Position numbers and translations under genes: made by a program
Part shown: positions 26,618 to 43,275 of the stretch, in pieces
Layout of the letters: each line of letters opens with the position of its first letter
Numbering within the stretch: position 1 is the first letter of the stretch
DNA from: Minisyncoccota bacterium
GTDB taxonomy: Bacteria > Patescibacteriota > Microgenomatia > PFEM01 > JAFGMK01
Direction: 5' to 3'
Assembly: GCA_016927565.1 (NCBI GenBank)
Contig: JAFGMK010000024.1
Location: forward strand, 6,105 to 70,104
DNA length: 64,000 nucleotides
Notes under the pieces: model-generated
The model's input: the letters and a program-made list of their open reading frames with translations, nothing else
The model's database searches: none
What the model was told of the DNA's origin: nothing

Positions 26618-26655
26618 ACGATCCGGGATCGTTTTCCTACCTACGATCCGGTAAA
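26618..26655. repeat. GATCCGGGATC palindromic element (degenerate copy E)
   Basis: cacgatccgggatcgttttcctacctacgatccgg, in the SPFH-fpg intergenic region. Confidence 0.45.
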
Positions 26656-26712
26656 ACTATCTTTTCCCATCCTGATTCTCCGTCGTTCCTCTATCAGAAG
26701 GGATAACCAGAA

Positions 26713-27669
26713 TCAATTTTGGCACCGCGGGCAATAAAAAGTTCCCCGGCCGCCGATTTTGATTCTTCTGATTTTCCCGGAGCAGGAAAAACACTTTTTC
26801 CCGTCACGCTTATAGACTAAAAAATGCTTCTGATAAGCCCCTTTTTGACCTAAAGCATCAAGGTAATGTTGATCTGATGCTCCTCTATATTTGATTCCAG
26901 CCCGCAAAACCTTATGAATCGATTGATATACGCTTTTAACTTCTTTCTCCTTAAGACCGCAAGCTGGTCGTCGGGGATCAATTTTGGCTAAAAATAAACT
27001 GTCATTAGCATAAATATTGCCAATCCCGGAGATCTTTTTCTGATTTAAAAGAGCCAGCTTAACCGGCCGCCGGGTTGAGGCTAAATACCTTTTGAAATAG
27101 GAAAAGGTCAAATCATCCAGCGGTTCAGGTCCAAATTCAGCCATAATTTTCTCCAATTCTTCCCTGCCTTTAACCAGCTTAATCCACCCGAACTTTCGCA
27201 AATCACAAAAACGGAGCTCTAAATTATTCTCTTCCCCAGATTTCCACACCGGGAAAGTCAAACCGCCGCCGGCAATCTGTCTGCCACTCCTGAAGTATTT
27301 TTTTTCGAGCCCAATTACCACTCGTTGATATTCGTCCCCGGGATCACCTGGCTTTCTCACTAAAAGCCGGCCGGTCATTTTAAGATGAATCAGCAGGCAC
27401 GCCTGCCAAACACTTTTTTCCTTCTCAGAAAAGTTAAGTTGCCGTCGGCGCTCTTTTTGTTGTTCCCGAGGCGCTTTAAGAAAAACCTGCATTAATTTCG
27501 CCCGTCTCTTAATTTCGGCAATTTCTAAACCGATAACCTCTCCTTTAACCACTTTCAGCGACGGTAAAATTTGCTTGGGAGAATCCGCTAAAATATCAAC
27601 AATCCGATAACCTATCACTAATTTTTCCAGGCCTTTTTTTATTGTTTCCACCTCGGGCAATTCCGGCAT
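26713..27669 (-). CDS. mutM: formamidopyrimidine-DNA glycosylase (Fpg/Nei family)
   Basis: MPELPEVE N-terminus (catalytic Pro2/Glu3) and a C-terminal zinc finger (CFSC...CPRCQ). Longer than typical (318 aa), with internal inserts. Confidence 0.8.
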   Translation of the reverse strand: MPELPEVETIKKGLEKLVIGYRIVDILADSPKQILPSLKVVKGEVIGLEIAEIKRRAKLMQVFLKAPREQQKERRRQLNFSEKEKSVWQACLLIHLKMTGRLLVRKPGDPGDEYQRVVIGLEKKYFRSGRQIAGGGLTFPVWKSGEENNLELRFCDLRKFGWIKLVKGREELEKIMAEFGPEPLDDLTFSYFKRYLASTRRPVKLALLNQKKISGIGNIYANDSLFLAKIDPRRPACGLKEKEVKSVYQSIHKVLRAGIKYRGASDQHYLDALGQKGAYQKHFLVYKRDGKKCFSCSGKIRRIKIGGRGTFYCPRCQN

Positions 27670-27738
27670 AAGCCTCCTTTTTGACTCTTTCCATTATACC
27701 AATTATGATTTAGGAACAAGAAGCAATTTTAACTGACT

Positions 27739-28530
27739 ATGACCAATCTCGGTATTGTTTTATTTCTCTCTCTCTTGGGTAGCGTTTTCGCTTTAACCGG
27801 CGGGATTATTTTCCTATATGTAAAATCCTGGTCTCTGGTCTTAACCCGCTATTCGGTTTCCTTCGCCGCCGGCGTACTCCTGACTGTTGCTTTAATCGGC
27901 CTGCTTCCTGAAGCAGTGGAAATGATCGGCGAAAACGCTTTTTTAGTCGTTTTGTCAGCTTTCTTAAGCGCTTATTTGTTTGAAAACTTCGCCTGCAATC
28001 TTCATCACCACGACCACAACTGCGATCAGCCTGCCAATAAATCCTCAGGATCAACCGGTCTAATCATAATTGGCGACACCATTCATAATTTTATTGACGG
28101 CGTTGCCATCGCGGCCGCCTATCTTACCGATCCCGGTTTGGGTTGGATAACAACAATCTCAACTTTTTTACACGAAATCCCCCATGAAATCGGCGATTTC
28201 GGCATCTTATTAAAAAAAGGTTGGCCGCCGAAAAAAATTGTCATCGTTAATATCCTTTCCGCTTTATTTACTTTGATCGGCACTTTTTCGGTAGTATTCG
28301 TTTCTCAAAATGAAAACTTTATCGGGATTCTCCTCGCCTCCGCCGCAGGAATGTTTTTATATCTCGGAGCCAGCGATTTCCTTCCTCATGCCCACGAAGA
28401 CCTTTCCCGTAAGAAAGCGCTTTTGGCACTCCTGGCCGGAGTCGGCATCATGCTCGGCACTTTTAAAATCATTCCCCACTCCCACGAACATGACTCTCAT
28501 CACCATCAAGATCAGCCAGAAAAAAATTAA
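27739..28530 (+). CDS. zupT: ZIP family metal (zinc) transporter
   Basis: HEIPHEIGDF signature and a His-rich loop (HHHDHNCDQ); 8 TM. Confidence 0.8.
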   Translation: MTNLGIVLFLSLLGSVFALTGGIIFLYVKSWSLVLTRYSVSFAAGVLLTVALIGLLPEAVEMIGENAFLVVLSAFLSAYLFENFACNLHHHDHNCDQPANKSSGSTGLIIIGDTIHNFIDGVAIAAAYLTDPGLGWITTISTFLHEIPHEIGDFGILLKKGWPPKKIVIVNILSALFTLIGTFSVVFVSQNENFIGILLASAAGMFLYLGASDFLPHAHEDLSRKKALLALLAGVGIMLGTFKIIPHSHEHDSHHHQDQPEKN

Positions 28531-29705
28531 CTTTCCCCGATTGAAACTACTTCTGAAACAAATTCCAAAATTTCCCTTTTAAACCGTTCTTGGGAATATT
28601 TTTCTGCCTGTTGCCAGCAGTCTCTAAATTTAATTTTACGATATATCGAGATATCGAATTTTTTTAAAACCTTAATTAAACTATTGACAGTCAGTTCTTC
28701 AAAAAACAAGCCCGTCTTACCTTCAACTACTGTTTCCCTAACTCCACCGGAGCGGTAAGCAATCACCGGCCGGCCGGCCGCCATTGCCTCAACCGGAGTA
28801 ATCCCAAAATCCTCCTGATCAGCACAAAAAATATAAGCCCGGCAATTAGCATAAAGATCAGCCAATTCCCGATCGTTCACTTCGTCGACAAATTCGACTG
28901 TCGGCCCGGCCAGTTTTTTCAATTCTTCTCCATAACCGGCAAAGCTTGATCCAAAAACTTTCAAAGGCAAATTCAGTCGATTACATGCCCGCACTGCTAA
29001 ATCGATCCTTTTTGCCCGAGCCAACCGTCCTCCGGCTAAATAGTAAACCCCTTCCTTTTCGCCTCCCTGCTTCCTATTCTTAAATCTTTGAATATCCACC
29101 GGAGGATAAATCACTACCGAATCCCGGCGATAAAACTTTTTAATTCTCCCGGCCACTTCCCGGGAATTAGCTATAAAATGACTGACTTTTTGAGCTGATT
29201 CAAAGTCTGTCAATCTTAAAAAATGATTGATAAAATTCCCGGCCGATCTTCCCCACCAATGCTTCTGCCAATTACGGGCAGTCGGATATCCGTATAAATA
29301 CCGCGGCGGCGTATGGCAATAACAAAGATGAATTGCTTTTGAAGCGGTCTTAATGGTATTGGGAGTATAAGCTCCGGTTGCGGAAACGATTATCAGATCA
29401 AAACCGGATAAATTAAGCTTCCTCAAAGCCGTCGGCGCCAGCAATCGAAATGGACTAATCAGGAATTTTTTAAAAGGCACCTTTTGCAAAAAGGAAGTTC
29501 TGATTGGCCATTCTTTAACTTTTGTCTGATGAGGCCCGAAATTTCCGGGTAAAAAAAAACTGGTATAAATTGGTGCCCGGGGAAAGAGCTGGTGGAAGGC
29601 TTCTAAAACCCTTTCCGCCCCCCCATAACCAGCCAGATAATCATGCACCAGGGCAATTTTCAAACCGGAAAATTTTTTATTTTTTGGCTTTTGGTTTTTT
29701 TTCAT
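28527..29705 (-). CDS. glycosyltransferase family 4
   Basis: EDFGITPVEAMAAGRPVIA (EX7E region) and an N-terminal GGAERV-type motif. Confidence 0.8.
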   Translation of the reverse strand: MKKNQKPKNKKFSGLKIALVHDYLAGYGGAERVLEAFHQLFPRAPIYTSFFLPGNFGPHQTKVKEWPIRTSFLQKVPFKKFLISPFRLLAPTALRKLNLSGFDLIIVSATGAYTPNTIKTASKAIHLCYCHTPPRYLYGYPTARNWQKHWWGRSAGNFINHFLRLTDFESAQKVSHFIANSREVAGRIKKFYRRDSVVIYPPVDIQRFKNRKQGGEKEGVYYLAGGRLARAKRIDLAVRACNRLNLPLKVFGSSFAGYGEELKKLAGPTVEFVDEVNDRELADLYANCRAYIFCADQEDFGITPVEAMAAGRPVIAYRSGGVRETVVEGKTGLFFEELTVNSLIKVLKKFDISIYRKIKFRDCWQQAEKYSQERFKREILEFVSEVVSIGES

Positions 29706-30688
29706 ACCAGCTTCAACTGTCTTCGAATCTGTTCTTTTTCCCCCTCTCTTTCCGAATCCGGCAAGTCACCCGGCAGCTTGTTCATCAAACTCTTAAATCC
29801 CAGTTTCTTAAACAAAGTGAGGGCCTTTTCCCGGTCATAATCAGCCAAGCGGCATTTTTTTAAAATCAGTTTCACCGGCGCCTTAATCGTAATCCGAGCC
29901 AGCTTTTGCGAAAGCAGGGCTGACTCCTTCCCCTCCTTTAGTTTCCGCGCTACCGAAACTGGCAATTTATCCAAATTAAGGTATATATTTTCCAGCGACC
30001 CGAACGACTCAAGCAATCGAACGGCTGTTTTTGGGCCAATCCCGGGAACACCCGGATAATTATCTGAAGAATCACCCATCAAAGCTTTATAATCTACAAT
30101 CTGATCCGGCCAAACCCCAAGTGATTCTTTTACTCCTTCAGCATCAAATAACCGCGCCTCAGAAAACCCCTTGATTGGCGCGTAAACAAGGGTTGAATCG
30201 TTTATTAGTTGAAAAATGTCCCGATCGGCCGTCACAATAATCGTTTCTATTCTGGATTTCGCTCCAGAAGAGGACCTACGCCCACTTCCGGATTGTTTTG
30301 TCGTTTTGCGCTTAAGAACCCTGGCCTGAAAAGCCAAAGTTCCAATTATATCGTCAGCCTCGAACCCGTTTTTTTCAAAAACAGGAAGCGCCAAGGCCGA
30401 CAAAACCTCTCTGATTATTTCAATTTGGTCTTTTAAAGCCTCATCCATTTTCGGCCGCTGGATCTGGTAACCAATAAACTCCCGGTGCCTGAAAGTCGGC
30501 TCCGGCCGATCAAAAGTAACTGCTAAATAAAACGGACCAAGATCCTCAATTACCCGAAGAAGCATCCGGGTAAAACCATAGACAGCATTAACCAGCTGTC
30601 CATGGCGATTAGTAAGACTTTTCGGAAGCGCGTGATAAGCCCGATGAAGAATGGCATGGCCATCAATCAAAACCAGTCTTTTTTTCAT
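29702..30688 (-). CDS. 5'-3' exonuclease (FEN/Pol I N-terminal domain only)
   Basis: MKKRLVLIDGHAILHRAYHAL start, acidic metal-binding clusters, and a helix-hairpin-helix (GVPGIGPKTA). No polymerase domain follows. Confidence 0.85.
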   Translation of the reverse strand: MKKRLVLIDGHAILHRAYHALPKSLTNRHGQLVNAVYGFTRMLLRVIEDLGPFYLAVTFDRPEPTFRHREFIGYQIQRPKMDEALKDQIEIIREVLSALALPVFEKNGFEADDIIGTLAFQARVLKRKTTKQSGSGRRSSSGAKSRIETIIVTADRDIFQLINDSTLVYAPIKGFSEARLFDAEGVKESLGVWPDQIVDYKALMGDSSDNYPGVPGIGPKTAVRLLESFGSLENIYLNLDKLPVSVARKLKEGKESALLSQKLARITIKAPVKLILKKCRLADYDREKALTLFKKLGFKSLMNKLPGDLPDSEREGEKEQIRRQLKLV

Positions 30689-30707
30689 ATCTTCATTCTA
30701 ACACGCC

Positions 30708-31448
30708 TCAATCGTCTCCGGAACCTGAAGCGACCACTGTCTCGGCTCTTAAAAAGGCCTGCCAAAACTGAAAAGATTCTTGAGATGATAGCGACCGATG
30801 ATCAGTTATCCTTCTTAATCTTATCTCTGCAGCCAGCTTCTTTCTTTCTGACAAGGAAGCACCCCGAGTTTCTTCCTGCATCTTTCTTATCTCTGCGGAA
30901 GCTTCAGGAGGAGTAATCAGCCGATCCTTAGAATAAAACAGGCCTAACTGGCCATCACGAGTAAAATGAGCAGTAACAACTCCCCCGTCACCAAGATATC
31001 TTTCTACCACCAATTCTCCGTTGACATACACCGTTTTTTTCCCTTTTTCTTCTGAAAAAGGCGCCAGAACTGCCGCCAATAACGGATTACTGTTCCTTCT
31101 TTTTGACTCTCTTCTCAACTGACCCAATCTTTCAGGACTTTCAAAAACTTTAATCTGCCATTTTTCTCCCGCCAATTTTAAATTCACTTCCGATCTTAAA
31201 CAGCTCCGTCCCCGGCAACCGATTTTCGGATCAGCCGACAGGGCCGTTTCTATTTTTTTCCCCACCTCATCTGAAGGAAAGACAAATTCCGGGGCTAAAG
31301 CCAATCTCTCCCCAAAAACAATTGCCGGTTCAGAGAAGATTACTAAATAAATACCCCGATCTCTTGCCGCCACTTCTCCAATAAGCTGATCAGGACTTTC
31401 AGTCATTTTATTCCTCAATCGGATTTCTGCCCAATATAACAGACCCAA
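30708..31448 (-). CDS. hypothetical protein (246 aa)
   Basis: ORF only. A single HFTR (HxTx-like) motif. No confident family. Confidence 0.45.
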   Translation of the reverse strand: MGLLYWAEIRLRNKMTESPDQLIGEVAARDRGIYLVIFSEPAIVFGERLALAPEFVFPSDEVGKKIETALSADPKIGCRGRSCLRSEVNLKLAGEKWQIKVFESPERLGQLRRESKRRNSNPLLAAVLAPFSEEKGKKTVYVNGELVVERYLGDGGVVTAHFTRDGQLGLFYSKDRLITPPEASAEIRKMQEETRGASLSERKKLAAEIRLRRITDHRSLSSQESFQFWQAFLRAETVVASGSGDD

Positions 31449-31505
31449 AGAATGGAACCGTCATTAAAGTTTCACAAATACGACAAGTCTGTTTTACGAA
31501 CATTG

Positions 31506-32123
31506 TTACTTACTCTGGCCAATTACTACCCGAAGTCTCGAAGCCGGTATCTCTTCGGTATGATAATGCGACGGATTCGGCTGCCAGGTATTCCCCGTAA
31601 AATGCGGGAACCTGGGGTCAGTTTTATCAGGCTGGCGCCGGTAATCAACTCTTTTAGCGGCAATCGTCCGACTATAAGGACAAAGAATGAGTTTTACTAC
31701 CGGATCAGCTTCCTTCCCGATCTTTGAAACTTCAACCACCCTCTCCCTTCTTAAAGTATCTGGTTGGTCCAATTCCCCCAGGACTACCTCAACCTCTGTC
31801 GCCATCGCCTGAGCCGTCGGCTTGGCTGGTTTACCAAGACACCCCACCAATGCCATCTCAATCCGCCGATGATCCGAATCAACTGCATTTTTTAAATCTT
31901 CCGGCTGGCCCACCCTTATTACTCGTTCAACCTGATCTAACAAATAACCAGCCATCCCTTCCTCAACCGGTTCGGCCCGCATTCTATCTGCCAGCTCCTT
32001 ATCTTCAGGCCCGATCCGCCGCAAAAGTCTTTCATATTCGCGGCTAGATCTTTTTACTTGCATCCAGGGAAAAAAAACTCCAGTTCCTTTCAATCTATGA
32101 AAAGCTTCCCCGATTGCTTCCAT
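31506..32123 (-). CDS. hypothetical protein (205 aa)
   Basis: ORF only. Preferred over the overlapping 91-aa plus-strand ORF because of strand context and length. Confidence 0.45.
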   Translation of the reverse strand: MEAIGEAFHRLKGTGVFFPWMQVKRSSREYERLLRRIGPEDKELADRMRAEPVEEGMAGYLLDQVERVIRVGQPEDLKNAVDSDHRRIEMALVGCLGKPAKPTAQAMATEVEVVLGELDQPDTLRRERVVEVSKIGKEADPVVKLILCPYSRTIAAKRVDYRRQPDKTDPRFPHFTGNTWQPNPSHYHTEEIPASRLRVVIGQSK

Positions 32124-32133
32124 ATTGTCGAAA

Positions 32134-34080
32134 TTAGTTACTCTTCTTAATTTTAGCCTTTTCCGGCTTCATTATTTTCTCAAATTCTTCTTCCTCAAGC
32201 GTTTCTTTTTTCAGAAGCGCCTCAGCCACTTTATCCAGCTTTTCCCGATTCTGTTTAACAATCTCCAGAGCTTTTTGATAACAATCGCTGATAATTTTCC
32301 TGATCTCCTTATCAACCCCCGCCTGCATCTCAGACGAAAGATGAACCGGTTCAATCCAAGAACGGCCCCACTCGCTGATGTCAATCTGCGGTCCCAAATA
32401 AATCGGTCCCAGCGCGCTCATTCCCAAATTAACCACCATTTGCCGAGCTATGCTGGTAGCTTTATCAATATCCGAGGCCCCTCCGGCTGTAAATTCTTTA
32501 AAAACCACTTCCTCTGCCGCCCGGCCACCCAACAAAGAAGCCACTGTTTCTAAAAGATGAGACTGGGTTTCGTTGTAGCGATCTTTTTTCGGCGGAATCA
32601 TCGTAAAACCCATTGCAATTCCCCGCGAAACGATACTGATCCGATGAACCGGGTCCATATGCGGCAAATTGTAAGTCACCACTGCGTGACCACCCTCATG
32701 ATAAGCCGTCATCTTCCGATCATCCTCCGATTGCAATCTTTTTTTCTCCGGTCCTAACTTGACCTTCAATGCCGCCTCTTCGATATCCTTCATCTCAATC
32801 GCCTTGCGGGCTTCTCTGGCAGCGGAAATAGCCGCTTCATTAAGCATGTTCTCCAAATCAGCCCCGGAAAAACCGACTGTCCTTTTAGCCACTCTTTCCC
32901 AATCCAATCCCTGGACAAAAGGTTTGCCCCGGGCATGAATTCCCAAAATCGCCTGCCGATCTTCAATATCCGGCATATCTAAAACCACCCGGCGGTCAAA
33001 TCGCCCCGGCCGCAAGAGAGCCGGATCAAGCAAATCGCCCCGATTAGTCGCCGCCAAGACAATCACATTGTCATTCGGATTAAAACCGTCCATCTCTACC
33101 AGAATCTGATTTAGGGTTTGTTCCCGCTCATCATGGCCGCCGGCAAAACCGGTTCCCCGTTGGCGACCAATAGCGTCAATTTCATCAATGAAAATAATTG
33201 CAGGAGAAGCCTTTTTTGCATTATTGAACAAATCTCTTACTCGGCTAGCTCCCACCCCAACCAACATCTCCATAAATTCCGAACCTGCCATGGAGAAAAA
33301 AGGCACTCCGGCTTCCCCTGCCACTGCTTTTGCCAATAAAGTCTTACCAGTCCCGCTTGGGCCGACCAAAATTACCCCTTTGGGGGTTCTGGCTCCCAAA
33401 GCTCGATATTTACCCGGCCGCTTCAAAAAATCAACAACTTCTTCAAGTTCTTTTTTAGCTTCTTCGACTCCGGCCACATCTTTAAAAGAAACCGATTGCT
33501 TGCCTTTGGCAAAAAGTTTGGCTTTAGAACGGCCAAAGGAAAAGATGCCCTCCTGGGCTCCCCGAGCTTGTCTGAAAAGCCAGAGAAAAAAAACTGCCAT
33601 CAAGGCCAAAGGCAAAAAGGTACCCAGAATTTCAAGCCAAATCTTGGAAAGTGAAGTATCTTTAATTACCACTCCGACCGCATCAGGATCGATGCCAGCA
33701 TCACGGAATAATTCAGTCAAAGATTGACCCGGTTCTTTCCGGGAAAAAGCAATTTTTTTCTCCCCGTAATCCACTAATAAACGGTCATCCTCAACCGCCA
33801 CCTCTTTTACTTTCTCTGATTTAATATCCGTAATTAACTGCGAAAGGGAAATCTCATCTTCAACCGGCACTGAGGCAAAAGAAAAGAGAAAAGAGGCTCC
33901 GGTGAAAATGATAAAAAGCCAAAGGAAAATCTTTTTCAGGTTTAGCCGGATCTTTACTTCCAGCTGCTTCGGTTTTTTCCTGTTAGCTAAGTTTTTTTTT
34001 GGTTGTTTCACTTTTGGTGCCTCTTTCAACTGGGGTAAAAAAAGCGTTTTTTGATTTTTCATATGGGAGAATTCTAGCAC
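32134..34080 (-). CDS. ftsH: ATP-dependent zinc metalloprotease FtsH
   Basis: N-terminal TM pair, AAA Walker A GPSGTGKT, Walker [13 protein letters not shown] region, and the M41 HEGGHA zinc site. Confidence 0.95.
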
Positions 34081-34103
34081 AGATATTAGCTAAACTAAAG
34101 CAG

Positions 34104-35132
34104 TTAAGCCAATCCCATTGCTTTTTTAACCTCTTTTAAGGTTTTCTGTGCCTCGGCCTGAGCAGTTTGGCTGCCTTTTTTAATAATTTCCTCGATTGCC
34201 TCCGGTTGAGATTCGTATTTCCTTCTTCTGGCCCGAATAGGGTCTAAGAACAAGTTCAAGGCCTTGACTAATTTTTCCTTTACCTCAACATCGCCGACCT
34301 GACCTTTCTGATACCTCTGTTTAAGCCTTTCAACTTCTTCCTGATTGTTGTTAAAGGCCTCGTGATAAACAAAAACCGGATTTCCCTCAACGTGGCCCGG
34401 ATCAGTTGGATGAACACGAGTCGGATCAGTGTACATTGCCATTACTTTCCGCCTGACCTCATTAGCATTATCGGAAAGATAAATGCAGTTTCCTACTGAT
34501 TTGCTCATTTTGGTTTGACCGTCAGTCCCCGGTAAAGTCGGCACCTCTCCAATCAAGGCTTCAGGAAAGGGAAAAATTTCACCGTAAAGCAAATTAAAAC
34601 GCTTGGCAATTACCCGCGTAAGTTCAATGTGACTTTCCTGATCTTTGCCCACAGGAACCAAATTTCCCTTAACCATTAAAATATCAGCTGCTTGCAAAAC
34701 CGGATAAGTTAAGAGGCCGAGGGACGGACTCTGAATCTTTAGATCATGCATTACCTCTTTTAAAGTCGGCACCCGCTGACAGCGAGGTACTGAAACCAGC
34801 ATCGAAAATAAAAGTGCCAGATAAGCTACTTCCGGTACGAGTGACTGCTGGTAAATAACCGCCTTTCCGGGATCAATGCCGACCGAAAGATAATCTAAAA
34901 CCAAATCGTGAATATTTTGCTTAACCTTGGCGATTTTCTCCTTCTCAATTCGAGTTGTAAGAACATGAAGATCGGCAATAATAAAAAAGCATTCATATCG
35001 ATCTTGAAGCCTAACCCGATTAGCCAGAGTGCCGACATAATGGCCCAAATGAAGTTTCCCGGTTGGCCGGTCGCCGGTAAGAATTCTTTTTTTAGCTTTC
35101 ATCTTTTCTCCTTTTCTTTTCAATTCTAACAT
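34104..35132 (-). CDS. trpS: tryptophanyl-tRNA synthetase
   Basis: TGDRPTGKLHLGHYVG (HIGH-type motif) and KMSKS. The start is probably the internal Met (MKAKKRIL) near 35102. Confidence 0.9.
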   Translation of the reverse strand: MLELKRKGEKMKAKKRILTGDRPTGKLHLGHYVGTLANRVRLQDRYECFFIIADLHVLTTRIEKEKIAKVKQNIHDLVLDYLSVGIDPGKAVIYQQSLVPEVAYLALLFSMLVSVPRCQRVPTLKEVMHDLKIQSPSLGLLTYPVLQAADILMVKGNLVPVGKDQESHIELTRVIAKRFNLLYGEIFPFPEALIGEVPTLPGTDGQTKMSKSVGNCIYLSDNANEVRRKVMAMYTDPTRVHPTDPGHVEGNPVFVYHEAFNNNQEEVERLKQRYQKGQVGDVEVKEKLVKALNLFLDPIRARRRKYESQPEAIEEIIKKGSQTAQAEAQKTLKEVKKAMGLA

Positions 35133-35147
35133 GTTTATTCGCTGATT

Positions 35148-36053: not shown

Positions 36054-36095
36054 CTTCTCGTCTTTCTCTTCCGGTCATATTTTCTTCCTTCTTTT

Positions 36096-36121: not shown

Positions 36122-36211
36122 CCTAGTGGAAACTATTCACTCACGCACACATTGCGATTCCCCCGCGGGTCCAGCGATATCTGATCTTTCTCCGGCGCCG
36201 TCAGCTTGAAA

Positions 36212-36268
36212 AAAGCCCGCTGCCACTAAAAAACCCGCTGTCAGCGGGTTTCTAGTTTCTTTTTATTC
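36212..36268 (+). terminator. GC-rich hairpin followed by a T-tract (intrinsic-terminator-like) with an alternative upstream pairing partner
   Basis: AACCCGCTG-T-CAGCGGGTT followed by TCTAGTTTCTTTTTATT. An upstream AGCCCGCTGCC could pair with the same 3' arm instead. Confidence 0.45.
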
Positions 36269-36410
36269 AAATTTTATCCATGACCAAACCGCCGACAGCT
36301 TATCTGGTATCGGCGGACCACCAAGCAGAATCTTGCTTAAAGTGAGTCATAATGAACTTATCTTAGCAAATTCTTTGAAAAAGTCAATCCTATTGGCTAT
36401 GATATGATTA

Positions 36411-37139
36411 ATGAAGAAGCTAATTTTAATCTTTCTTGTCATGGGCTTAGCTTCAATTTTGATTAGTTTTTTAAGCTTGCTGCCATTTCCCCGGAAGAGA
36501 ACCATGGTTCCGATTCGCCAAAATCCTAAAGGGCAAACAATTAGCCTCCCTCTCCCCCAACTTGATAGCAGCGTCAGTTTAGAAGAAGCAATCTCTAAAA
36601 GAAGGTCAAAAAGAAACTTCAAAAACGACCGCCTGACTCTTCAACAAGTTAGCCAAATTCTCTGGGCAGCCCAGGGAATAACGGACCAGAAAAATAACCT
36701 TCGCACCGCTCCCTCAGCCGGCGCCCTCTATCCTCTTGATCTTTACCTTGTTGTCGGTGAAGAAAAAGTCACCGGACTAACCGCCGGTGTTTACCACTAT
36801 CTCTCTCAAATACACGAGCTAGAAAGAATCCTTGAAAAAGATCTCCGGGATTCACTCATGAAGGCTTCTTTATTTCAAGTTTATGTTAAAAAAGCCCCGA
36901 TCATTCTAATAATCACCGTTGAATACGAAAGAACCACTCAAAAATACGGCAAACGCGGGGTTCAATATGCCCATATGGAAGCCGGCCACGTCGGCCAAAA
37001 TGTCGCTCTCCAGGTCACCAGTTTAGACCTGGGAACGGTGACGGTCGGCGCTTTCGAGCCGGAAAAAATCAAAAAAATTCTCAACCTACCGACCAACTAC
37101 CAACCTCTCTATGTCATGCCCATCGGCCAAACAGAATAG
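36411..37139 (+). CDS. nitroreductase-family (SagB-type) oxidoreductase with N-terminal signal/TM
   Basis: RRSKRNFKNDRLTLQQVSQILWAAQG and a later YAHMEAGHVGQN motif are typical of the nitroreductase/SagB fold. Confidence 0.7.
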   Translation: MKKLILIFLVMGLASILISFLSLLPFPRKRTMVPIRQNPKGQTISLPLPQLDSSVSLEEAISKRRSKRNFKNDRLTLQQVSQILWAAQGITDQKNNLRTAPSAGALYPLDLYLVVGEEKVTGLTAGVYHYLSQIHELERILEKDLRDSLMKASLFQVYVKKAPIILIITVEYERTTQKYGKRGVQYAHMEAGHVGQNVALQVTSLDLGTVTVGAFEPEKIKKILNLPTNYQPLYVMPIGQTE

Positions 37140-37165
37140 AAAAGCCTCCTAAAAAGATTGTTACG

Positions 37166-37232
37166 AAAACAAAGATAACGATCGCGGCGGCGGAATCGGG
37201 GAAACTCCGGAATGTCAAAGAAATTGGGTAAA
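37166..37232. repeat. GATCCCGGATC-family element, internally deleted copy D
   Basis: aaaacaaagataacgatcgcggcggcggaatcggggaaactccggaatgtcaaagaaa. It shares both flanks (aaaacaaagataacgatc / ctccgga.tgt.aaagaaa) with copy A. Confidence 0.6.
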
Positions 37233-37289
37233 TTACCATGAAACTCATAATTGATTAAGCTCAAAATGTTTGCTAGAATAACCTTAACT

Positions 37290-37362
37290 TGCGGGGTAGT
37301 GTACGGCGGCACGTGAGGCTCATAATCTCACAGACCGGGTTCAACTCCCGGCCCCGCAACCA
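37290..37362 (+). tRNA. tRNA with anticodon CAT (Met or Ile-lysidine type); CCA encoded
   Basis: Hand-folded. Acceptor stem TGCGGGG/CCCCGCA, U8, D-stem GTGT/GCAC, anticodon stem TGAGG/TCTCA with loop CTCATAA, T-stem CCGGG/CCCGG with loop TTCAACT, discriminator A, then CCA. It lacks the three G-C pairs of an initiator. Confidence 0.65.
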
Positions 37363-37405
37363 AACAAAGAGAGCCTCTCCGGCTCTTTTTTGTTTGGTTT
37401 GTGTG
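37363..37405 (+). terminator. intrinsic terminator after the tRNA
   Basis: AACCAAACAAAGAGAGCC-TCTCC-GGCTCTTTTTTGTTTGGTTTG: a long hairpin followed by a T-run. Confidence 0.6.
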
Positions 37406-37430
37406 ATCTTGTGAACCGGCAAAACAAAGA

Positions 37431-37509
37431 TAACGATCCCGGATCATCTGCAGATTTCTTTTCCGGGATCGGGAAAGCTCCGGATTGTTAAAGAAAGTAA
37501 ATCGTTGCC
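37431..37509. repeat. GATCCCGGATC-family hairpin element, full copy A
   Basis: aaagataaCGATCCCGGAtcatctgcagatttcttTCCGGGATCGggaaagctccggattgttaaagaaag. A 10-bp perfect stem, a 17-nt loop, and a trailing CCGGATT. Confidence 0.7.
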
Positions 37510-37563
37510 AATAGCAGTTTTTTCTTGTTCAAACCACTTTTGCCTGATATAATTTCTTCACCG

Positions 37564-37635
37564 GCTAGGGTAGCTCAGGGGTAGAGCAATCGTTTCATAA
37601 GCGATGGGTCGCCGGTTCAAATCCGGCCCCTAGCA
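37564..37635 (+). tRNA. tRNA with anticodon CAT (Met/Ile2 type); no encoded CCA
   Basis: GCTAGGG-TA-GCTC-AGGGGTA-GAGC-A-ATCGT-TTCATAA-GCGAT-GGGTC-GCCGG-TTCAAAT-CCGGC-CCCTAGC-A. A canonical 72-nt cloverleaf. G1-C72 paired and no GGG/CCC in the anticodon stem, so an elongator type. Confidence 0.8.
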
Positions 37636-37647
37636 CAATAATTACTT

Positions 37648-38046
37648 TTACCAGCCAAAAACCTCCAGCCACTTTTGCCAATTTGGAGTTGGCAACAAGG
37701 CTTCTTCTTCTTGAGTTTGGCCTAGGTCGGGCGGCAAGACAACCACAACCTCACCCTCTTTAGCCATATTAAGTTTGTCTCTCGCCTGTTTTTCAATAAA
37801 AGCCTCAGACTCGACATGTTCTCTTTTCTGAAGCAACTCTTCCTGTTCTGCCTGCAGCCTGGCAAGCTCTTCCTGAGCCCGGCCTACTTCCTTTTCCGCC
37901 CGAAAGAGACGAAAAATATTCCGCAGCAAACCTGAGATCATTAACAAGCCCAAAAATGAAGCCAGAATTAAGCCTAATCTTTTTTTTAAAAAAGACCTTT
38001 TTTGAGGCATAATCACTCCCCCTAAGCATCCTAGCCCGCCGGCCAT
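37648..38046 (-). CDS. FtsB/DivIC-like septum-formation initiator
   Basis: N-terminal TM, a coiled-coil segment (RAEKEVGRAQEELARLQAEQEELLQKRE), then ARDKLNMAKEGEVVVV, which is typical of the FtsB/DivIC C-terminus. Confidence 0.55.
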   Translation of the reverse strand: MAGGLGCLGGVIMPQKRSFLKKRLGLILASFLGLLMISGLLRNIFRLFRAEKEVGRAQEELARLQAEQEELLQKREHVESEAFIEKQARDKLNMAKEGEVVVVLPPDLGQTQEEEALLPTPNWQKWLEVFGW

Positions 38047-38201
38047 ACCGAAGTCAATCCGACTTAACTGTTCAGACCCTGGGAAAGCTTTGCTTGTCTA
38101 CGCCGAACCACACACTTTAAGGTAAAATAAAAGACACTTCGCAGGAGTGATTTCACTTTTTTTCTCTCCCAAGTCTGAACTCTTATAACCCAACCCCACT
38201 C

Positions 38202-38230
38202 TTGACAATAGGATCTCTGACTGCTATTAT
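38202..38230 (+). promoter_or_regulatory. sigma70-like promoter for the recombinase gene, followed by tandem TTATAGGATA boxes
   Basis: TTGACA (38202-38207), a 17-nt spacer, TATTAT (38225-38230). Then ttTTATAGGATAtctTTATAGGATAcc and a GAGGAAA RBS 7 nt before the ATG at 38284. Confidence 0.5.
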
Positions 38231-38283
38231 AGGGCAGTTTTATAGGATATCTTTATAGGATACCTTCCCGAGGAAATTTTCAA

Positions 38284-39150
38284 ATGAATAGCAATCTTGA
38301 CTCGCTTGAGACTGCCCACAAAAGGCTGGTTAACCATCTAAAAAACAAGGGCCGCGCTCAGGCAACTATCCTTGCCTACCGGAAGGATATTGAACAGTTA
38401 GTCGCTTTTCTAAAAGACAAAGGCATTAGTCAGACAACTTCAGTTACTTCCGACCACATTGAAGAATTCAAAAAAAGTCTGATGGAAAAAAAATACACTG
38501 CCAAGTCGGTTTCAAGAAAGCTCAATGCCATTAAAACTTTCTTTAAATTCCTGGAAGAAGAAGGCGTCCTGCTCTTAAACCCGGCCACAGCCGTTGCCCA
38601 CCCGAAATACAAAATTAAGGCACCGCGGATTCTTTCCCAGATGGAATACCGGGCCATCCGAGACGCCGCCAGGGAAGACACTCGTATTTCCACAATAATT
38701 GAACTTTTACTTCAAACCGGAATGAGAATCGGCGAATTAGCCCGGCTGGAAACCGGCGATGCTAATGAAAAAACCTTAACCATCCGAGGCTATGAATCTC
38801 ATAAACAAAGAGACATTCCGCTGAACCGATCGGCCCGAAAAGCCCTGGAAGCCTACCTTGAAACCAGACCCAAAGTCCGCACCCGATCGTTATTTGTCAC
38901 CAAAAACGGCCGGCCGTTTTTAGTCAGAAACATCAGAAGCGCAATTGAACGCTATTTCCGTATCGCCGGTTTAGAAAATGCCAAAGTTAACGATCTCAGA
39001 CATACCTTTATTGCCCACCAATTAGGTGCCGGCAACTCCGTTGTCCTGATTCAAAAATTAGTTGGACACAAAAGACTTTCCACTACTGAAAGATATTTGG
39101 AATTCGTCGAAAGCACCTCTTCTGAAGAAGTTAAGATCAAAGAATTGTAG
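38284..39150 (+). CDS. tyrosine recombinase, XerC/XerD family
   Basis: An N-terminal SAM-like core-binding domain. The catalytic region shows R...HTFIAHQLGAGNSVVLIQKLVGHKRLSTTERY (R-H-R-Y tetrad with the terminal Tyr). Confidence 0.85.
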   Translation: MNSNLDSLETAHKRLVNHLKNKGRAQATILAYRKDIEQLVAFLKDKGISQTTSVTSDHIEEFKKSLMEKKYTAKSVSRKLNAIKTFFKFLEEEGVLLLNPATAVAHPKYKIKAPRILSQMEYRAIRDAAREDTRISTIIELLLQTGMRIGELARLETGDANEKTLTIRGYESHKQRDIPLNRSARKALEAYLETRPKVRTRSLFVTKNGRPFLVRNIRSAIERYFRIAGLENAKVNDLRHTFIAHQLGAGNSVVLIQKLVGHKRLSTTERYLEFVESTSSEEVKIKEL

Positions 39151-39194
39151 CTAAATCAAAATCTCCGAAGCCTAACCTTATCCAAAATACCCTG

Positions 39195-39266
39195 TGCGCC
39201 TGCTTGGATTCGAACCAAGAACCCTCGACTTATAAGATCGATGCTCTACCGTTGAGCTACAGGCGC
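39195..39266 (-). tRNA. tRNA-Ile with anticodon UAU (reads AUA)
   Basis: Minus-strand fold: GCGCCTG-TA-GCTC-AACGGTA-GAGC-A-TCGAT-CTTATAA-GTCGA-GGGTT-CTTGG-TTCGAAT-CCAAG-CAGGCGC-A. Anticodon loop C-T-[TAT]-A-A. No encoded CCA. Confidence 0.8.
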
Positions 39267-39295
39267 AAAGCAATTAGCGATTTCGGAACAATCAA

Positions 39296-41629
39296 TTATA
39301 ACTTGGCCCGCTGGGCAATTTCTGATTCCACTAACTGCCTGTCCTGACCGTATTTCAACCGGGAAAGATTCCTTACCATTTCCCCTACCCTGGGATCTTT
39401 CATCTTTTCCAAAGCAGCCATGTCCCGATAAAGATCAACTGAAAAAGGCGGCACCGGCTCATTCCTGACAATCGTTTTCATATAAATGTGGTAGCGCTCG
39501 ATATTCAGAAGATCGTCTTCAGCAAAAGTGGGCTGGAATTCATGAGTTAAATAAGAAGCATCATTCACTCCCACCCGAAAAGACATAATCGTTCCCACAT
39601 TTCCGAAAATGGCATTTTTAACCTCCTCATCCATCTGCCCGATAAATTGATTGGCAACGGTTAAATTCAGCCGGTATTTCCGGGCTTCTGAGAGAATCTG
39701 GGCAAAATCCGGAGTGGCAAAGTTTTGAAATTCATCAACATAAAGATAAAAATCGCGCCGCTGGTCCTCAGGAATATCCGCCCGGCTCATCGCCGCCATT
39801 AACAATTTCGGCACAAAAACCAAACCCAAAAAAGAACTGTTCTCTTCGCCGATCTTCCCTTTAGCCAAATTAATTATCAAAATCTTCCCTTCGTCCATTG
39901 CCCGCCGGAAATCAAAAGAAGACTTTGATTGGCCGATAATATTCCGCATTGTTTTATTGGTAACAAAGCGGCCGAATTTAGATACGATGTAGTCAAGCAC
40001 TTCGCTTTTATGAAAGTCTGAAGTCTGGGCAATCTGGTCGGTCCAGTAACGTTTAACCATCGGGTCTTTAACCTTAGGCAAAAGCTCCTGAACATATTTA
40101 GCATCAGTCAGGCAACGGACAATTTCGACGAAGCTGCTTCCCTCCTCACACATGACTGTCAACATGGCATTCCTGATCGCATGCTCAAACCGGGGACCGA
40201 TAATGCCGGTTTTATAAGGGTCATAAAGTTTGTACATTAAATTTATAATCGCCCCGGTAACAAAATGCTTTTGCTCTTCATTCTGAACTTCAAGCAAGTT
40301 AAAACCCATCGGCCTTTCGGTATCCGAGGGGTCAAAGTAAATTACATCCTCGGCTCTTTCCGGCGGAATAAATTCAAGCAGACTTTCCGCCAGATCATGA
40401 GGATCAATTAAGCAAATTCCTTTCCCGGCCCGAATGTCTTGAAGAATCATATCTTTTAAAAGCTCGGTTTTGCCGACCCCGGTTTTACCAATCACATAAA
40501 CATGGCGGCGGCGGTCCTTATCGCTCAGATAGACCGGCCGGCTCATTCCCCGGTAAGTCGATTTGCCGACATAAAGACCGCTCTTGGGAATCTGAACCGG
40601 CGCCGGTGCTGTTTTGGCATAAAGCCAGTGAATGTGAGGCGTTTCGACTGTTTTATTGGGAAAGTGAAAAATGGTTGCCAGCTCTTCTGAAGAAAGAATT
40701 GAGTGGCCCATTCCCATATAGACCAGCGGCATATAGCGATAAATAAAATCAATCATAAATAATTTTTTAAACCAGATCTTACTGGTTTTAAGCCCGTTCA
40801 GATTAGAGGAAAACTGCTCAAAAGAAGACTTGATGTTTTCCAGATGAGCTTCAGCCTGTTCCTCGGTGGTTGAAGAAACCACAATCCGAATCAAAGTCTC
40901 AAAACCGGGCTTACTGGTTTTACTTTCGATTGCTTCCAAAGTTTTAGCATCGACTTTAAAAGAAGCTTTTTCAACATCTGCCTCTTCCTTTTTTGTTTTG
41001 GAGATAAATGACTTGCCCGCACTCTGCCAACTGCTTCCGGCCGGAACTACATTAATTTGAATTACCGCCCCTTCTCCTTCACTCATCTTCGCCAGTGAAG
41101 TAGTAATCAGGGAAAGCGGGTCAGTTGCTAATTCTCGGTAAGACTTAAGAGGATAATAAGAATCTTTACTCAACTGAAGCTGGGCAAAGGCAACCTTCCC
41201 TTCCTGAGAAAAAATATTGTATTCAGAAACTTTCTTAAGTTCGGCAGACGGATAAGCCCCGTAAATTTGCTTTTCAATAAAATCCTGAAGATCCTTAGGA
41301 ACCGAAATGTAAAAGCGGATATCTTCGGGCCGGGCAACAATTTCAAAACAAAGGTGATTGGGAGGCTTAAGGTTTAAAAAATCGCTGCTTGTTTTAATTG
41401 AATTCAAAGACGCAAAAAACTGTTCGGCAGTATCGATTTTAGTTTCATTATTAAAAGGAACTGCCACCTGCAAAAGAACCGACTGAAGAGATCTTTCTTC
41501 CCGCTTCTGATTTCTTTTCGTCAGCAGGAAAAAATAAAGCCCAATCACCAATCCCAAAAATAAAAAGACCAGAACACCGATGACGGCAAGGAAAAGACCC
41601 AGATTGCCCGTAAGGGCTTCCATATTCAT
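39296..41629 (-). CDS. membrane-anchored P-loop NTPase of the FtsK/HerA/VirB4-TraG type (conjugation/type-IV-secretion-like ATPase)
   Basis: A single N-terminal TM helix, then about 340 aa of unknown domain, then Walker A YVIGKTGVGKT followed by ICLIDPHDL (like the HerA/TraD -DPKGE- segment) and Walker B LYVDEFQNF; 777 aa. Confidence 0.55.
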   Translation of the reverse strand: MNMEALTGNLGLFLAVIGVLVFLFLGLVIGLYFFLLTKRNQKREERSLQSVLLQVAVPFNNETKIDTAEQFFASLNSIKTSSDFLNLKPPNHLCFEIVARPEDIRFYISVPKDLQDFIEKQIYGAYPSAELKKVSEYNIFSQEGKVAFAQLQLSKDSYYPLKSYRELATDPLSLITTSLAKMSEGEGAVIQINVVPAGSSWQSAGKSFISKTKKEEADVEKASFKVDAKTLEAIESKTSKPGFETLIRIVVSSTTEEQAEAHLENIKSSFEQFSSNLNGLKTSKIWFKKLFMIDFIYRYMPLVYMGMGHSILSSEELATIFHFPNKTVETPHIHWLYAKTAPAPVQIPKSGLYVGKSTYRGMSRPVYLSDKDRRRHVYVIGKTGVGKTELLKDMILQDIRAGKGICLIDPHDLAESLLEFIPPERAEDVIYFDPSDTERPMGFNLLEVQNEEQKHFVTGAIINLMYKLYDPYKTGIIGPRFEHAIRNAMLTVMCEEGSSFVEIVRCLTDAKYVQELLPKVKDPMVKRYWTDQIAQTSDFHKSEVLDYIVSKFGRFVTNKTMRNIIGQSKSSFDFRRAMDEGKILIINLAKGKIGEENSSFLGLVFVPKLLMAAMSRADIPEDQRRDFYLYVDEFQNFATPDFAQILSEARKYRLNLTVANQFIGQMDEEVKNAIFGNVGTIMSFRVGVNDASYLTHEFQPTFAEDDLLNIERYHIYMKTIVRNEPVPPFSVDLYRDMAALEKMKDPRVGEMVRNLSRLKYGQDRQLVESEIAQRAKL

Positions 41630-41640
41630 AATAACTTATC

Positions 41641-42186
41641 TCAATTCTCGTAATCTTCTGCCGAGGAGTTCGTTGCCATCCCCGGCTTATTTTTGTAAAC
41701 TTGATTTTGATCGGCCCGGACCGCTTGGACTCGAGGTTGATTTTTAGTCTTTTTTTGTTTCGGGGGTTTTCTGTTAAAAACACCCCCCATCAACCTAATC
41801 AGACGGATACACCATTCCGCCAGCCAGCGGATAGAATCAACCATTTTATGAGTCGTTCCTTCTCTGATTTCCTCTTCGGTCAAAGGCAAAACAATTCCTG
41901 TCGCGTCATCACCGGAATTGCTGACTAAAACCTGGCCCGTTTGATCATCCGTCACCGACTGAGTAAGCCGGGTCGCCGCCCCGGGAACCGGCTGGGCCAT
42001 CTCAATTTCTCTGGGAATTTCCGGAATATCAAGCCTCTCAACTACCGGAAATTGATTCAGCCCCTTGCCGAAAACTCCTTCCACAACCTTTTGCCTCTCT
42101 TCAAGTGAAACTGGTTTTGTTTCTTTTTCTTTGTCTGTCAACGTCACAGTAAAATGAAGAACCTGATCCTGATTGTTCTTCTCCAA
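41641..42186 (-). CDS. hypothetical protein (181 aa), with an acidic N-terminus and a basic KKTKNQ tail
   Basis: ORF only. Transcribed first in the same minus-strand run, with its stop 12 nt from the ATPase start. Confidence 0.45.
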   Translation of the reverse strand: MEKNNQDQVLHFTVTLTDKEKETKPVSLEERQKVVEGVFGKGLNQFPVVERLDIPEIPREIEMAQPVPGAATRLTQSVTDDQTGQVLVSNSGDDATGIVLPLTEEEIREGTTHKMVDSIRWLAEWCIRLIRLMGGVFNRKPPKQKKTKNQPRVQAVRADQNQVYKNKPGMATNSSAEDYEN

Positions 42187-42424
42187 TTTCCCATTATATT
42201 AAACGGATAGAAGAATCACAATGAGGAACAATAAAAAAAATCAGTTTTGGTCTTGCAATTTTTCCAGAAGTTTTTTGGCGGAGGTAAATTTGCGAAACCG
42301 ATGGCGTCCTGAAACTGAACGACTCGGCTCTTTTTTTTCCCACCAAAAGGAAGTTCCGTTTTTAACCCCGTTTTTACCAGCCATACAAATAATTCTTAAT
42401 AGACTATTAAACGATAGTCAAGTA

Positions 42425-43216
42425 TCAAATAAAATCCCCGCCCACTCCCCGCAATTTAGTTTTTGGGATCATTTCTGAAATCATTTTTTTAAAAGCTTTC
42501 AACTGGGAAACAGCAAAAGGCTCTATTTCATTGAATCCAGGGTCAAGGCAGTTTTTGGGTTGAAAAGACTGAAGAACCCAGGAGAAATCTCTAATTTTCC
42601 GACCGCAACCGGCAAACAGGTTTTTTAAATCCCGAGCCATTGTCAGCAAAACCTTTTCATCATGGATGGTCGGTACTATGGTTGTCCGGAATTCAAACGG
42701 CAAGCCAGAGTCTATTATCAACCGCATAGATTCCTTAATTCCAGCGGCTAACGATCCCGGATCGTCTGCAGATTTCGATCCTGGATCGGATTGCCCCCCG
42801 GATTTAATTCCAACTACATTTTCATAATCCGAAAATGTAGTCTTATAATCCATCGCCCAAAAATCTACCAGTTTTGCCTCAAGCAATTTTTTGATGACCT
42901 CAGGCCGACTACCGTTAGTTTCTATCATTATCTTAAAACCCAAAGCTTTAACCTTAGTTGAAAACCCCAAAAGGTCTGGCTGGAGAGTCGGTTCACCACC
43001 GGTAACCGCCACACCATCAATCCATTTGCTCCGCCGCTTCAAATCCGTCAAAACAATCTTCTCGCTGTGATGTTTCAGCTTTTTACTATTGATTTTCACC
43101 AGGTCGCGATTGTGGCAAAACGGACAGGCAAAATTGCAGCCCGGGACAAAGATCACTGAAGCAATCTTGGTCGGCCACTCGATCAGAGAGGTTTTTAAAT
43201 AACCGGCAATTTTCAT
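42425..43216 (-). CDS. nrdG: anaerobic ribonucleotide reductase activating protein (radical SAM, NrdG/PflA family) carrying a 20-codon in-frame insertion
   Basis: CNFACPFCHN radical-SAM cluster motif near the N-terminus. An internal GIK-SGGQSDPGSKSADDPGSLAAG-IKESM segment is encoded by a copy of the GATCCCGGATC repeat element. Confidence 0.8.
   Translation of the reverse strand: MKIAGYLKTSLIEWPTKIASVIFVPGCNFACPFCHNRDLVKINSKKLKHHSEKIVLTDLKRRSKWIDGVAVTGGEPTLQPDLLGFSTKVKALGFKIMIETNGSRPEVIKKLLEAKLVDFWAMDYKTTFSDYENVVGIKSGGQSDPGSKSADDPGSLAAGIKESMRLIIDSGLPFEFRTTIVPTIHDEKVLLTMARDLKNLFAGCGRKIRDFSWVLQSFQPKNCLDPGFNEIEPFAVSQLKAFKKMISEMIPKTKLRGVGGDFI
42748..42808. repeat. GATCCCGGATC-family element, copy B, inside the nrdG coding sequence and flanked by an 8-bp direct repeat TTAATTCC
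   Basis: ctaaCGATCCCGGATCGtctgcagatttCGATCCTGGATCGgattgccccccggattt. TTAATTCC occurs at 42736-42743 and 42804-42811. Confidence 0.7.
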
Positions 43217-43223
43217 AAAAACT

Positions 43224-43275
43224 AATCGATCCCGGATCCTCAGGTATTTCTAATCCGGGATCTTAAATCCCCAGA
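43224..43275. repeat. GATCCCGGATC-family element, copy C
   Basis: ctaatcGATCCCGGATcctcaggtatttctaATCCGGGATCttaaatcccc, in the nrdG-nrdH intergenic region. Confidence 0.65.

Follow-up and report, generated by a model that had tools for sequence, protein, structure and literature searches.

To our knowledge, systems that pair repetitive extragenic palindromic (REP) sequences with REP-associated tyrosine transposases (RAYTs) have been studied almost only in Proteobacteria. In Enterobacteria, Pseudomonas and Neisseria, REPs are short, multi-copy, imperfect palindromes that are mostly extragenic and that form hairpins when they occur as doublets (REPINs), and the HUH/Tyr transposase gene lies between inverted copies of the repeat, with one palindrome for each transposase clade (structure 4ER8; Bertels & Rainey, PMC3337134; bioRxiv 10.1101/2021.07.10.451892). 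Proteobacterial systems of this kind have been interpreted as replicators that are inherited vertically and persist over long times (bioRxiv 10.1101/2021.07.10.451892). Here we analyze a family of short hairpin repeats in a 64-kb stretch of DNA, below called the window, from contig JAFGMK010000024.1 of a Minisyncoccota bacterium, a member of the candidate phyla radiation (CPR)/Patescibacteria. We hold, with a probability of roughly 80%, that these hairpins are REP elements in doublet (REPIN-like) form, and that they belong to a REP family with a cognate clade of RAYT-type HUH/Tyr (Y1) transposases that is widespread in CPR/Patescibacteria.

Other described systems share parts of this picture. 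Insertion sequences (IS) of the IS200/IS605 type (IS608 TnpA), which move by single-strand “peel and paste”, have a transposase of the Y1_Tnp superfamily and recognize hairpins, and by analogy no target duplication would be expected from either system. Rickettsia palindromic elements (RPEs) are 100-150 bp long, are inserted in frame in protein genes and are tolerated there as an extra surface peptide; we know of no RPE outside Rickettsia and of no cognate transposase for them. The Correia/NEMIS, ERIC, BOX and other repeats resembling miniature inverted-repeat transposable elements (MITEs) are likewise small, non-coding, dispersed and hairpin-forming, and often co-transcribed with their neighbours, but they have terminal inverted repeats and target duplications (TA for Correia) or are modular, and they have no link to a Y1 enzyme, neither of which holds for the repeats described here.

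The link to a transposase comes from other genomes. At one metagenomic locus (L018) two hairpins with arms of the window type bracket an open reading frame (ORF) of 213 amino acids, one on each side. The ORF matches the Pfam family Y1_Tnp (IS200-like) with 29.3 bits against a cut-off of 23, and it contains the HUH motif NHFHISV and the Tyr motif SRYHHLNPV. The RAYT-like family has 176 detectable members, with lengths of 212-225 amino acids and the motifs NHFH and RYxHLNP, and residues H82, H84 and Y142 do not vary among 44 sequences. Its named members come mainly from Gottesman-, Roizman-, Levy- and Pacebacteria and the “Patescibacteria group”, with a few from Omnitrophota and Elusimicrobia. 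The sole NCBIfam match of these proteins is NF047646, REP-associated tyrosine transposase (42-58 bits, five members), and the sole PDB match of the family profile is 4ER8, the E. coli TnpA-REP protein, with an E-value of 7e-4 and an alignment that extends over both the HUH and the Tyr motifs. Viral contigs gave no REP match, and relatives of the transposase were found there only at 25-26% identity.

The association between repeat and enzyme was quantified in a sample of 80 metagenomic loci encoding homologues, at which the 150 nt upstream and the 150 nt downstream of the gene were compared. At 76 of the 80 loci a word of at least 9 nt is common to both gene flanks; it is nearly always a palindrome and is usually present in inverted orientation. 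Among the 31 loci whose protein shares 46-63% identity with that of L018, 14 carry the dyad-symmetric 13-mer CGATCCNGGATCG; it was seen in none of the 49 loci with identities of 45% or lower. Most other loci in the 46-63% range carry point variants that preserve the dyad (CAATCCGGGATTG, CACTCCGGGAGTG, CGAGCCAGGCTCG, CGATTCCGAATCG and CAATACCGTATTG), and those at 45% or below carry unrelated palindromes such as CACATACCCGGTATGTG and CAAGCCAGGCTTG. It is clear that the type of flanking palindrome tracks the transposase, and that the RAYT-like gene lies between inverted copies of its cognate REP. The canonical RAYT-flanking repeat consists of (T)TTACCGGATCG, approximately 11 nt, and then CGATCCSGGATCG, and the 13-mer hairpin of the clade can be written as the spaced arms TTTACCGGATCG-N11-CGATCCGGGATCG. 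Counted descriptively rather than as probabilities, the two flanks of one locus being related sequences, 95.5% of the cells of the 13-mer dyad are paired in 41 flanking repeats with 23 double-sided changes, and 81% are paired in the longer hairpin of upstream arm and 13-mer with 28 double-sided changes. Column shuffles as high as these were seen in 0 of 500 cases for the dyad as well as for the longer hairpin, and the signal collapses in slid registers, showing that both the 13-mer dyad and the long hairpin are kept by compensatory changes.

For recovery of the window copies independently of the window itself we used R1, a covariance model made from 21 RAYT-flanking repeats of other metagenomes with zero window sequence, which was run unfiltered over the whole window. 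The R1 matches coincide with four of the repeats listed in Table 1, at E-values from 2.3e-9 to 0.02, and R1 found nothing else below E = 0.1 in the 64 kb and no additional significant copy in the other 47 kb. The window copies thus belong to the RAYT-flanking repeat family of other CPR genomes. The initial annotation of the window had placed five repeats here and had called them REP- or MITE-like; all five sequences were found where it had put them, and the REP-like part of its reading is borne out by the same palindrome flanking RAYT-type genes in other CPR genomes and by the recovery with R1. The copy at 26618, which had been described as degenerate, is on the contrary the best canonical match in the window.

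Table 1 Repeat copies in the window and the gene that contains one of them (positions are those of the window).
Feature	Position	Strand	Description	Stem	Location
26618 copy	26615-26658	-	REP copy of canonical form TTTTACCGGATCG-TAGGTAGGAAAA-CGATCCCGGATCG; best R1 match, 38.0 bits, E 2.3e-9		between fpg stop (26713) and start of Band7/SPFH gene (26561)
Copy A, decayed	37166-37232	-	B-like outer flanks; hairpin core replaced by GCGGCGGCGGA		between nitroreductase gene (stop 37139) and promoter of tRNA-fMet (37290-37362)
Copy B	37421-37500	- (ambiguous)	R1 15.8 bits (E 0.02) on +, 13.8 bits on -		between tRNA-fMet terminator (37366-37390) and promoter of tRNA-Met (37564-37636)
Copy B, hairpin core	37432-37475		CGATCCCGGATC, 16-nt loop, TCCGGGATCGG, then trailing CCGGATT module	37434-37471, 10 bp, perfect	
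Copy N	42748-42792	-	13-mers CGATCCCGGATCG / CGATCCTGGATCG 11 nt apart; R1 33.8 bits (42750-42792, +, E 4.7e-8) and 29.3 bits (42748-42790, -, E 1.2e-6)	42752-42788, 12 bp, one mismatch	within nrdG
Copy G	43223-43267	-	R1 25.5 bits, E 1.9e-5 (43223-43265, minus)	43227-43263, 10 bp, perfect; -22.5 kcal/mol on minus	85-nt gap between thioredoxin-like gene (43302-43562) and nrdG; hairpin ends 10 nt before nrdG ATG (43216)
nrdG	42425-43216	-	anaerobic ribonucleotide reductase activase, NrdG-like, radical SAM; Pfam Radical_SAM and Fer4_12; ORF intact		

The repeats are strongly enriched in the window. With both strands counted, the core 9-mer GATCCCGGA is present 7 times where 0.62 occurrences would be expected, and 0 of 100 dinucleotide-preserving shuffles reach 7; the 12-mer CGATCCCGGATC, with at most two mismatches allowed, is present 19 times as compared with 4.1 expected. 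Four hairpin copies and one decayed copy in 64 kb make up one family, a multi-copy imperfect palindrome. Copies B, N and G each consist of two 13-mers 11-16 nt apart that are inverted and pair over 10-12 bp, as in REPINs, and we regard them as REPIN-like doublets because the upstream arm is extended to a second full 13-mer. They can be folded on either strand, with energies of -19.5 to -29.6 kcal/mol, and a further module, AATCCGGRG, is found 5-7 nt from each of them; the loop TCTGCAGATTTC is common to B and N. Since the core of copy B is nearly palindromic, its strand assignment is ambiguous. The 26618 copy combines one full arm with one partial arm (minus strand TTTTACCGGATCGTAGGTAGGAAAACGATCCCGGATCG), a layout nearly identical to that of the repeat which follows the RAYT genes of L125 and L129. 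The perfect 10-bp stem of the initial annotation is seen in B and G, is replaced by a longer stem with one mismatch in N, and is lacking in A, which has no stable fold (z-scores of -0.4 and +0.3) and no R1 match.

Copy A is accordingly a putative member, counted in the family through its alignment to copy B only. The two have approximately 62 positions in common, including both outer flanks, AAAACAAAGATAACGATC and CTCCGGAwTGTyAAAGAAA, and the alignment shows an 18-nt gap and substitutions across the hairpin in A. The identical outer flanks had been taken as possible element ends or duplicated insertion sites; they are indeed shared, as one unit of approximately 80 nt that has been copied, but they are not the ends of the family, being absent from N, G and the 26618 copy. 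A further single arm, found at 34866-34874 within the Trp/Tyr-tRNA synthetase gene, is no more than would be expected by chance.

The window has a G+C content of approximately 44%, is 91% coding and has 50 of its 56 genes on the minus strand. Three of the four significant copies, and the relic, lie in the 9% that is non-coding; the remaining copy is genic and in frame. The distances between successive copies are 10.5, 0.26, 5.3 and 0.48 kb, and the irregular spacing, together with the lack of any cas gene among the ORFs scanned against Pfam around the copies, upholds the earlier rejection of clustered regularly interspaced short palindromic repeats (CRISPR). No Rfam family matches any copy at E-values up to 1. 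The GC skew is between -0.08 and -0.30 in every 2-kb bin, a strong strand asymmetry, and the whole window seems to be part of a single replichore in which the genes are co-oriented. An orientation bias of the repeats relative to replication, with all copies on the G-rich minus strand, was considered and dropped, the R1 scores of N and B being nearly strand-symmetric.

Dispersed hairpins of the same type are present in other genomes. When one genome per species was searched with the pattern CGATCCCGGATC-N8-20-TCCKGGATC, at least 115 loci were returned; the source genome of the window is not among the matches listed. Most of the single matches listed are due to chance in high-G+C genomes, and multi-copy occurrence is found, among the matches listed, in metagenome-assembled genomes (MAGs) of intermediate G+C content: JAADGY01 with at least 7 loci, JAHJSD01 (Patescibacteria) with at least 5 loci and 6 copies, CAZWLF01 with at least 5 loci, and also, among others, a Gottesmanbacteria MAG. 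In these MAGs the copies sit on different contigs, the arms and immediate flanks match those of the window copies, and the loops are related (GTTTTnAGATTTTC as compared with GTCTGCAGATTTC in the window). They are mostly intergenic and often located just 3' of a gene, with 2 of the 26 hairpins listed falling in long ORFs with Pfam support. The only near-identical contig set, L117-L119 at 99.9% identity, shows no repeat polymorphism.

A side observation concerns the labels of some of these assemblies. MAGs titled “uncultured Gammaproteobacteria” carry the CPR-type REP at L018 (CAYHKY01), L042, L062, L089, L109 and L114 (CAZWLF01), L001 and L014 (CAZGOA01) and L082 (CAZTEW01). The labels are doubtful because the L018 transposase is 97% identical to P0123, a protein annotated as Patescibacteria.

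The pairing of solo hairpins with a Y1 transposase could also be read in another way, namely that the hairpins are decayed ends of autonomous IS200/IS605-type elements that have lost tnpA/tnpB and not REPs that are served in trans. The linked protein is indeed a Pfam Y1_Tnp member of the IS200 family, the ends of IS200/IS605 elements are subterminal hairpins, and many JAADGY01 contigs break near the repeat as they would at multi-copy IS elements. We nevertheless find this improbable. IS200/IS605 elements are whole gene-carrying units with their end hairpins on one strand, whereas the flanks of the transposase gene described here are mutually inverted, as for RAYTs, and the dispersed hairpins are gene-free: no transposase gene or remnant is found near the solo hairpins of the window or of approximately 25 other loci among the matches listed. 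In addition, no tnpB was seen beside the RAYT-like genes, and the sole curated and structural matches of the protein are to RAYT models and not to IS200 TnpA.

It is likewise unlikely that the hairpins are host regulatory RNA structures, such as intrinsic terminators, attenuators or mRNA-stabilizing stem-loops, that were never mobile and are alike through common function. Such a role would agree with the location of most copies just 3' of genes or between cistrons, with the stability of the stems on the minus strand and with the T-rich tails that follow B and G on that strand (GTTATCTTTGTTTT and ATTAGTTTTT). The terminator scan, though, lists none of the copies, the loops of 11-16 nt being outside the criterion of 3-8 nt and clean T-runs being lacking, and true terminators of the region, e.g. 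that at 37366-37390, are unrelated in sequence. One copy is within coding sequence, and the 13-mer recurs in distant genomes, where it flanks a transposase gene and co-varies with it, which would not be expected from a common terminator function. It would, on the other hand, be in keeping with the REP-RAYT interpretation if a REP had regulatory side-effects.

Copy N deserves separate treatment, since the initial annotation had located a copy inside nrdG, and this copy is confirmed to be in frame in an intact gene. The NrdG protein is 100% identical to the Candidatus Pacebacteria MAG protein MBN1263663.1, for which no link was found to any RAYT match, and the next homologue is 56% identical. 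Copy N is translated as SDPGSKSADDPGS, residues 143-155, in which both arms encode D-P-G-S because the arms are palindromic. An alignment with 23 homologues places the segment in a loop of variable length in the NrdG family, the shortest homologues having approximately 16 residues fewer there, and the in-frame insert is tolerated. In the AlphaFold model of NrdG (mean predicted local distance difference test score, pLDDT, of 85), residues 136-155 are coil between the helices 128-135 and 156-170, and the pLDDT is below 50 at residues 140-147; the model therefore predicts that copy N forms a disordered loop. Copies read in frame with D-P-G-S are found elsewhere as TDPGSEQPCSDPGS in a Wzy_C protein (L049) and as SDPGSPEDFDPGS in a tail-fibre-like protein (L082). 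The copies in nrdG and in these two genes behave like RPEs as described above, although the sequences are unrelated.

The loop is also used by other inserts. In the NrdG homologues P0079, P0111, P0007 and P0120 unrelated low-complexity inserts occupy the same loop and a second loop, e.g. FPARRSPPNRRGEGGSLRQKRRRLKPA and ...ACLPAGRGFGPL..., and these inserts of other CPR NrdG proteins may be in-frame captures of other repeat families. Upstream of nrdG and the thioredoxin-like gene are two paralogues of NrdD, the anaerobic ribonucleotide reductase, in tandem (43580-45733 and 45775-47745, both on the minus strand), each with a full Pfam NRDD match; DNA segments of the two genes, spaced 2192 nt apart, have identities of 72-83%, and an N-terminal ATP-cone match, below the Pfam cut-off, is seen only in the promoter-distal NrdD.

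An 8-bp direct repeat, TTAATTCC, is present on both sides of copy N (42737-42744 and 42806-42813), and CAAAGA/AAAGA flanks A and B. These are the features that would speak for a classical MITE derived from an IS with a DDE transposase, in which the arms are terminal inverted repeats and insertion gives target-site duplications, but we consider such an origin very improbable. Both TTAATTCC repeats encode G-I-K and both align to xVK motifs in homologues that lack the insert, e.g. FTNVKCKMSNVKSSM, and for this reason TTAATTCC was not counted as a target-site duplication; to judge from this alignment, the pair is probably ancestral protein sequence and was not made by insertion. The flanks of A and B are shared by common descent, the boundaries that one would infer differ between N and A/B, and no flanking repeat exists at G or at the 26618 copy, so that the MITE-like part of the initial annotation finds no consistent target-site duplication to stand on. 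Y1/HUH transposases make no target duplications. Finally, no DDE transposase is linked to the element anywhere, whereas a Y1 transposase is.

It is hardly credible that the dyad 13-mer CGATCCNGGATCG is an operator, bound as double-stranded DNA by a dimeric regulator of nrdG and the tRNA-Met genes, since the near-perfect dyad kept by compensatory changes, the copies upstream of a tRNA promoter and of nrdG, and the overlap of the upstream repeat at RAYT loci with a TTGACA-like -35 hexamer are offset by contexts that are unrelated across genomes, by copies that lie 3' of genes and inside ORFs, and by the transposase being the only protein consistently linked to the repeat.

Returning to the interpretation of the hairpins as REPs with a cognate RAYT, the following mechanism can be proposed. 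The unit recognized by the enzyme would be the dyad-symmetric 13-mer, which would pair with a second full or partial copy (CCSGGATCG) approximately 11 nt upstream in a hairpin with a stem of 8-12 bp. If the RAYT works like E. coli TnpA-REP and the IS200/IS605 enzymes (PMC3337134; bioRxiv 10.1101/2021.07.10.451892), it would bind to the hairpin when the DNA is single-stranded, cut beside it, and then copy or move it without target duplication. The RAYT gene would itself stay single, flanked by two inverted REPs, and the window copies would be its dispersed non-autonomous products, mobilized by a RAYT that is or formerly was encoded elsewhere in the source genome.

Secondary effects of the insertions are likely, as all copies would be transcribed as stable RNA hairpins. 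The intercistronic G and 26618 copies may protect the upstream mRNA or attenuate read-through, like E. coli REPs, and copy N would add a flexible “DPGS...DPGS” loop to NrdG. At copy G the hairpin is only approximately 10 nt (ATTAGTTTTT, 43217-43227) away from the start codon of nrdG. Nothing resembling a Shine-Dalgarno sequence can be seen, and the place where that of nrdG would be expected is taken up by the 3' arm of the hairpin. A different observation was made at the RAYT genes themselves: at L120-L142 the upstream REP has a spacer that is TTGACA/TTGACG when read along the coding strand, and its distance from the RAYT-like gene would suit a -35 element. It seems as if the transposase promoter is embedded in its own REP, a hint that the enzyme may control its own gene there.

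Several points weigh against the REP-RAYT interpretation or set the present system apart from the proteobacterial ones. REPs of the E. coli/Pseudomonas type have a conserved GTAG beside the palindrome. Here a 5' GTAG is not uniformly present: CGTAGG is found in the loop of the 26618 copy and in several RAYT-flanking repeats (L125, L127 and L141), and none is present in B, N or G. The hosts are CPR/Patescibacteria and not Proteobacteria, the doublets are 35-45 nt and thereby shorter than the typical REPINs of approximately 100 bp, and in-frame genic copies occur, one of them in the window, which is unusual for REPs. The proteins of 212-225 amino acids match the RAYT model and 4ER8 weakly, and because their NF047646 scores are below the NCBI equivalog cut-off of 80 bits they are a distant, distinct clade and not orthologues of characterized RAYTs. 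No RAYT homologue was detected by tblastn in the 64-kb window, a result that applies to the window and not to the whole genome. The sole RAYT-like protein annotated as Pacebacteria (P0197, at L116) carries a different REP, ATACACCCCWGGGGTGTAT, and was rejected as the cognate enzyme of the window repeats since that REP is unrelated to theirs. The window copies are imperfect, B reaching only 15.8 bits and A being undetected by R1, and they may be remnants left by a system that has become inactive. Finally, no relative of the genome close enough for a comparison of empty sites or of presence and absence was found in the databases: the nearest NrdG beyond the identical protein is 56% identical, and no related DNA was present among the fetched loci.

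Some further features of the window do not concern the hairpins. A tRNA-Ile gene with anticodon TAT (UAU) is located at 39194-39266 on the minus strand; such a tRNA is uncommon in bacteria, most of which read AUA with a lysidine-modified CAU tRNA. It has as neighbours a tyrosine recombinase/integrase gene (38284-39150) and a TraG/VirD4-like coupling-protein gene (39296-41629), and because of its position between these two the stretch may belong to an integrated element. Two class A penicillin-binding-protein paralogues (Transgly + Transpeptidase) in tandem on the plus strand (49491-51749 and 51853-54258) account for repeats of 70-75% identity spaced 2524-2578 nt apart. A 69-nt repeat is present at 6299-6367 and 7523-7591 in copies that are 87% identical, each just downstream of the stop of a minus-strand gene without Pfam match (6409-7383 and 7622-9520, respectively); this is a second, unrelated repeat or a shared 3' element.

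In the literature searched, no paper ties RAYT or REPIN to CPR/Patescibacteria, and the repeat sequence strings retrieve only cloning primers. The repeats are thus of a type already described, from a lineage for which the papers searched make no mention of REP-RAYT. As a more far-reaching and tentative proposal, to which we would give slightly less than even odds, a previously undescribed REP-RAYT system is widespread in streamlined CPR/Patescibacteria genomes and perhaps adds a new group to the REP-associated RAYTs, next to the proteobacterial Groups 2 and 3, with a 13-nt dyad that co-evolves base by base with the transposase and with REPs repeatedly fixed in frame as “DPGS...DPGS” loops, including that in NrdG.

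For annotation the finding means that these hairpins are repeats and not riboswitches, CRISPR remnants or gene-specific regulators, and that the odd segment of NrdG is repeat-derived. The in-frame nrdG copy is a clean example of a repeat turned protein loop, and if the more far-reaching proposal is true, fixation of REPs in frame would be a route to new protein segments like that of the Rickettsia RPEs. The 80 loci form a natural series of transposase/palindrome pairs for working out how a Y1 enzyme reads its hairpin, and under the same proposal the metagenomic loci would amount to a natural table of the recognition code of a Y1 transposase. CPR genomes are thought to be approximately 1 Mb in size, and the presence of a REP-RAYT layout in such compact genomes bears on how elements of this kind persist where free genome space is minimal.

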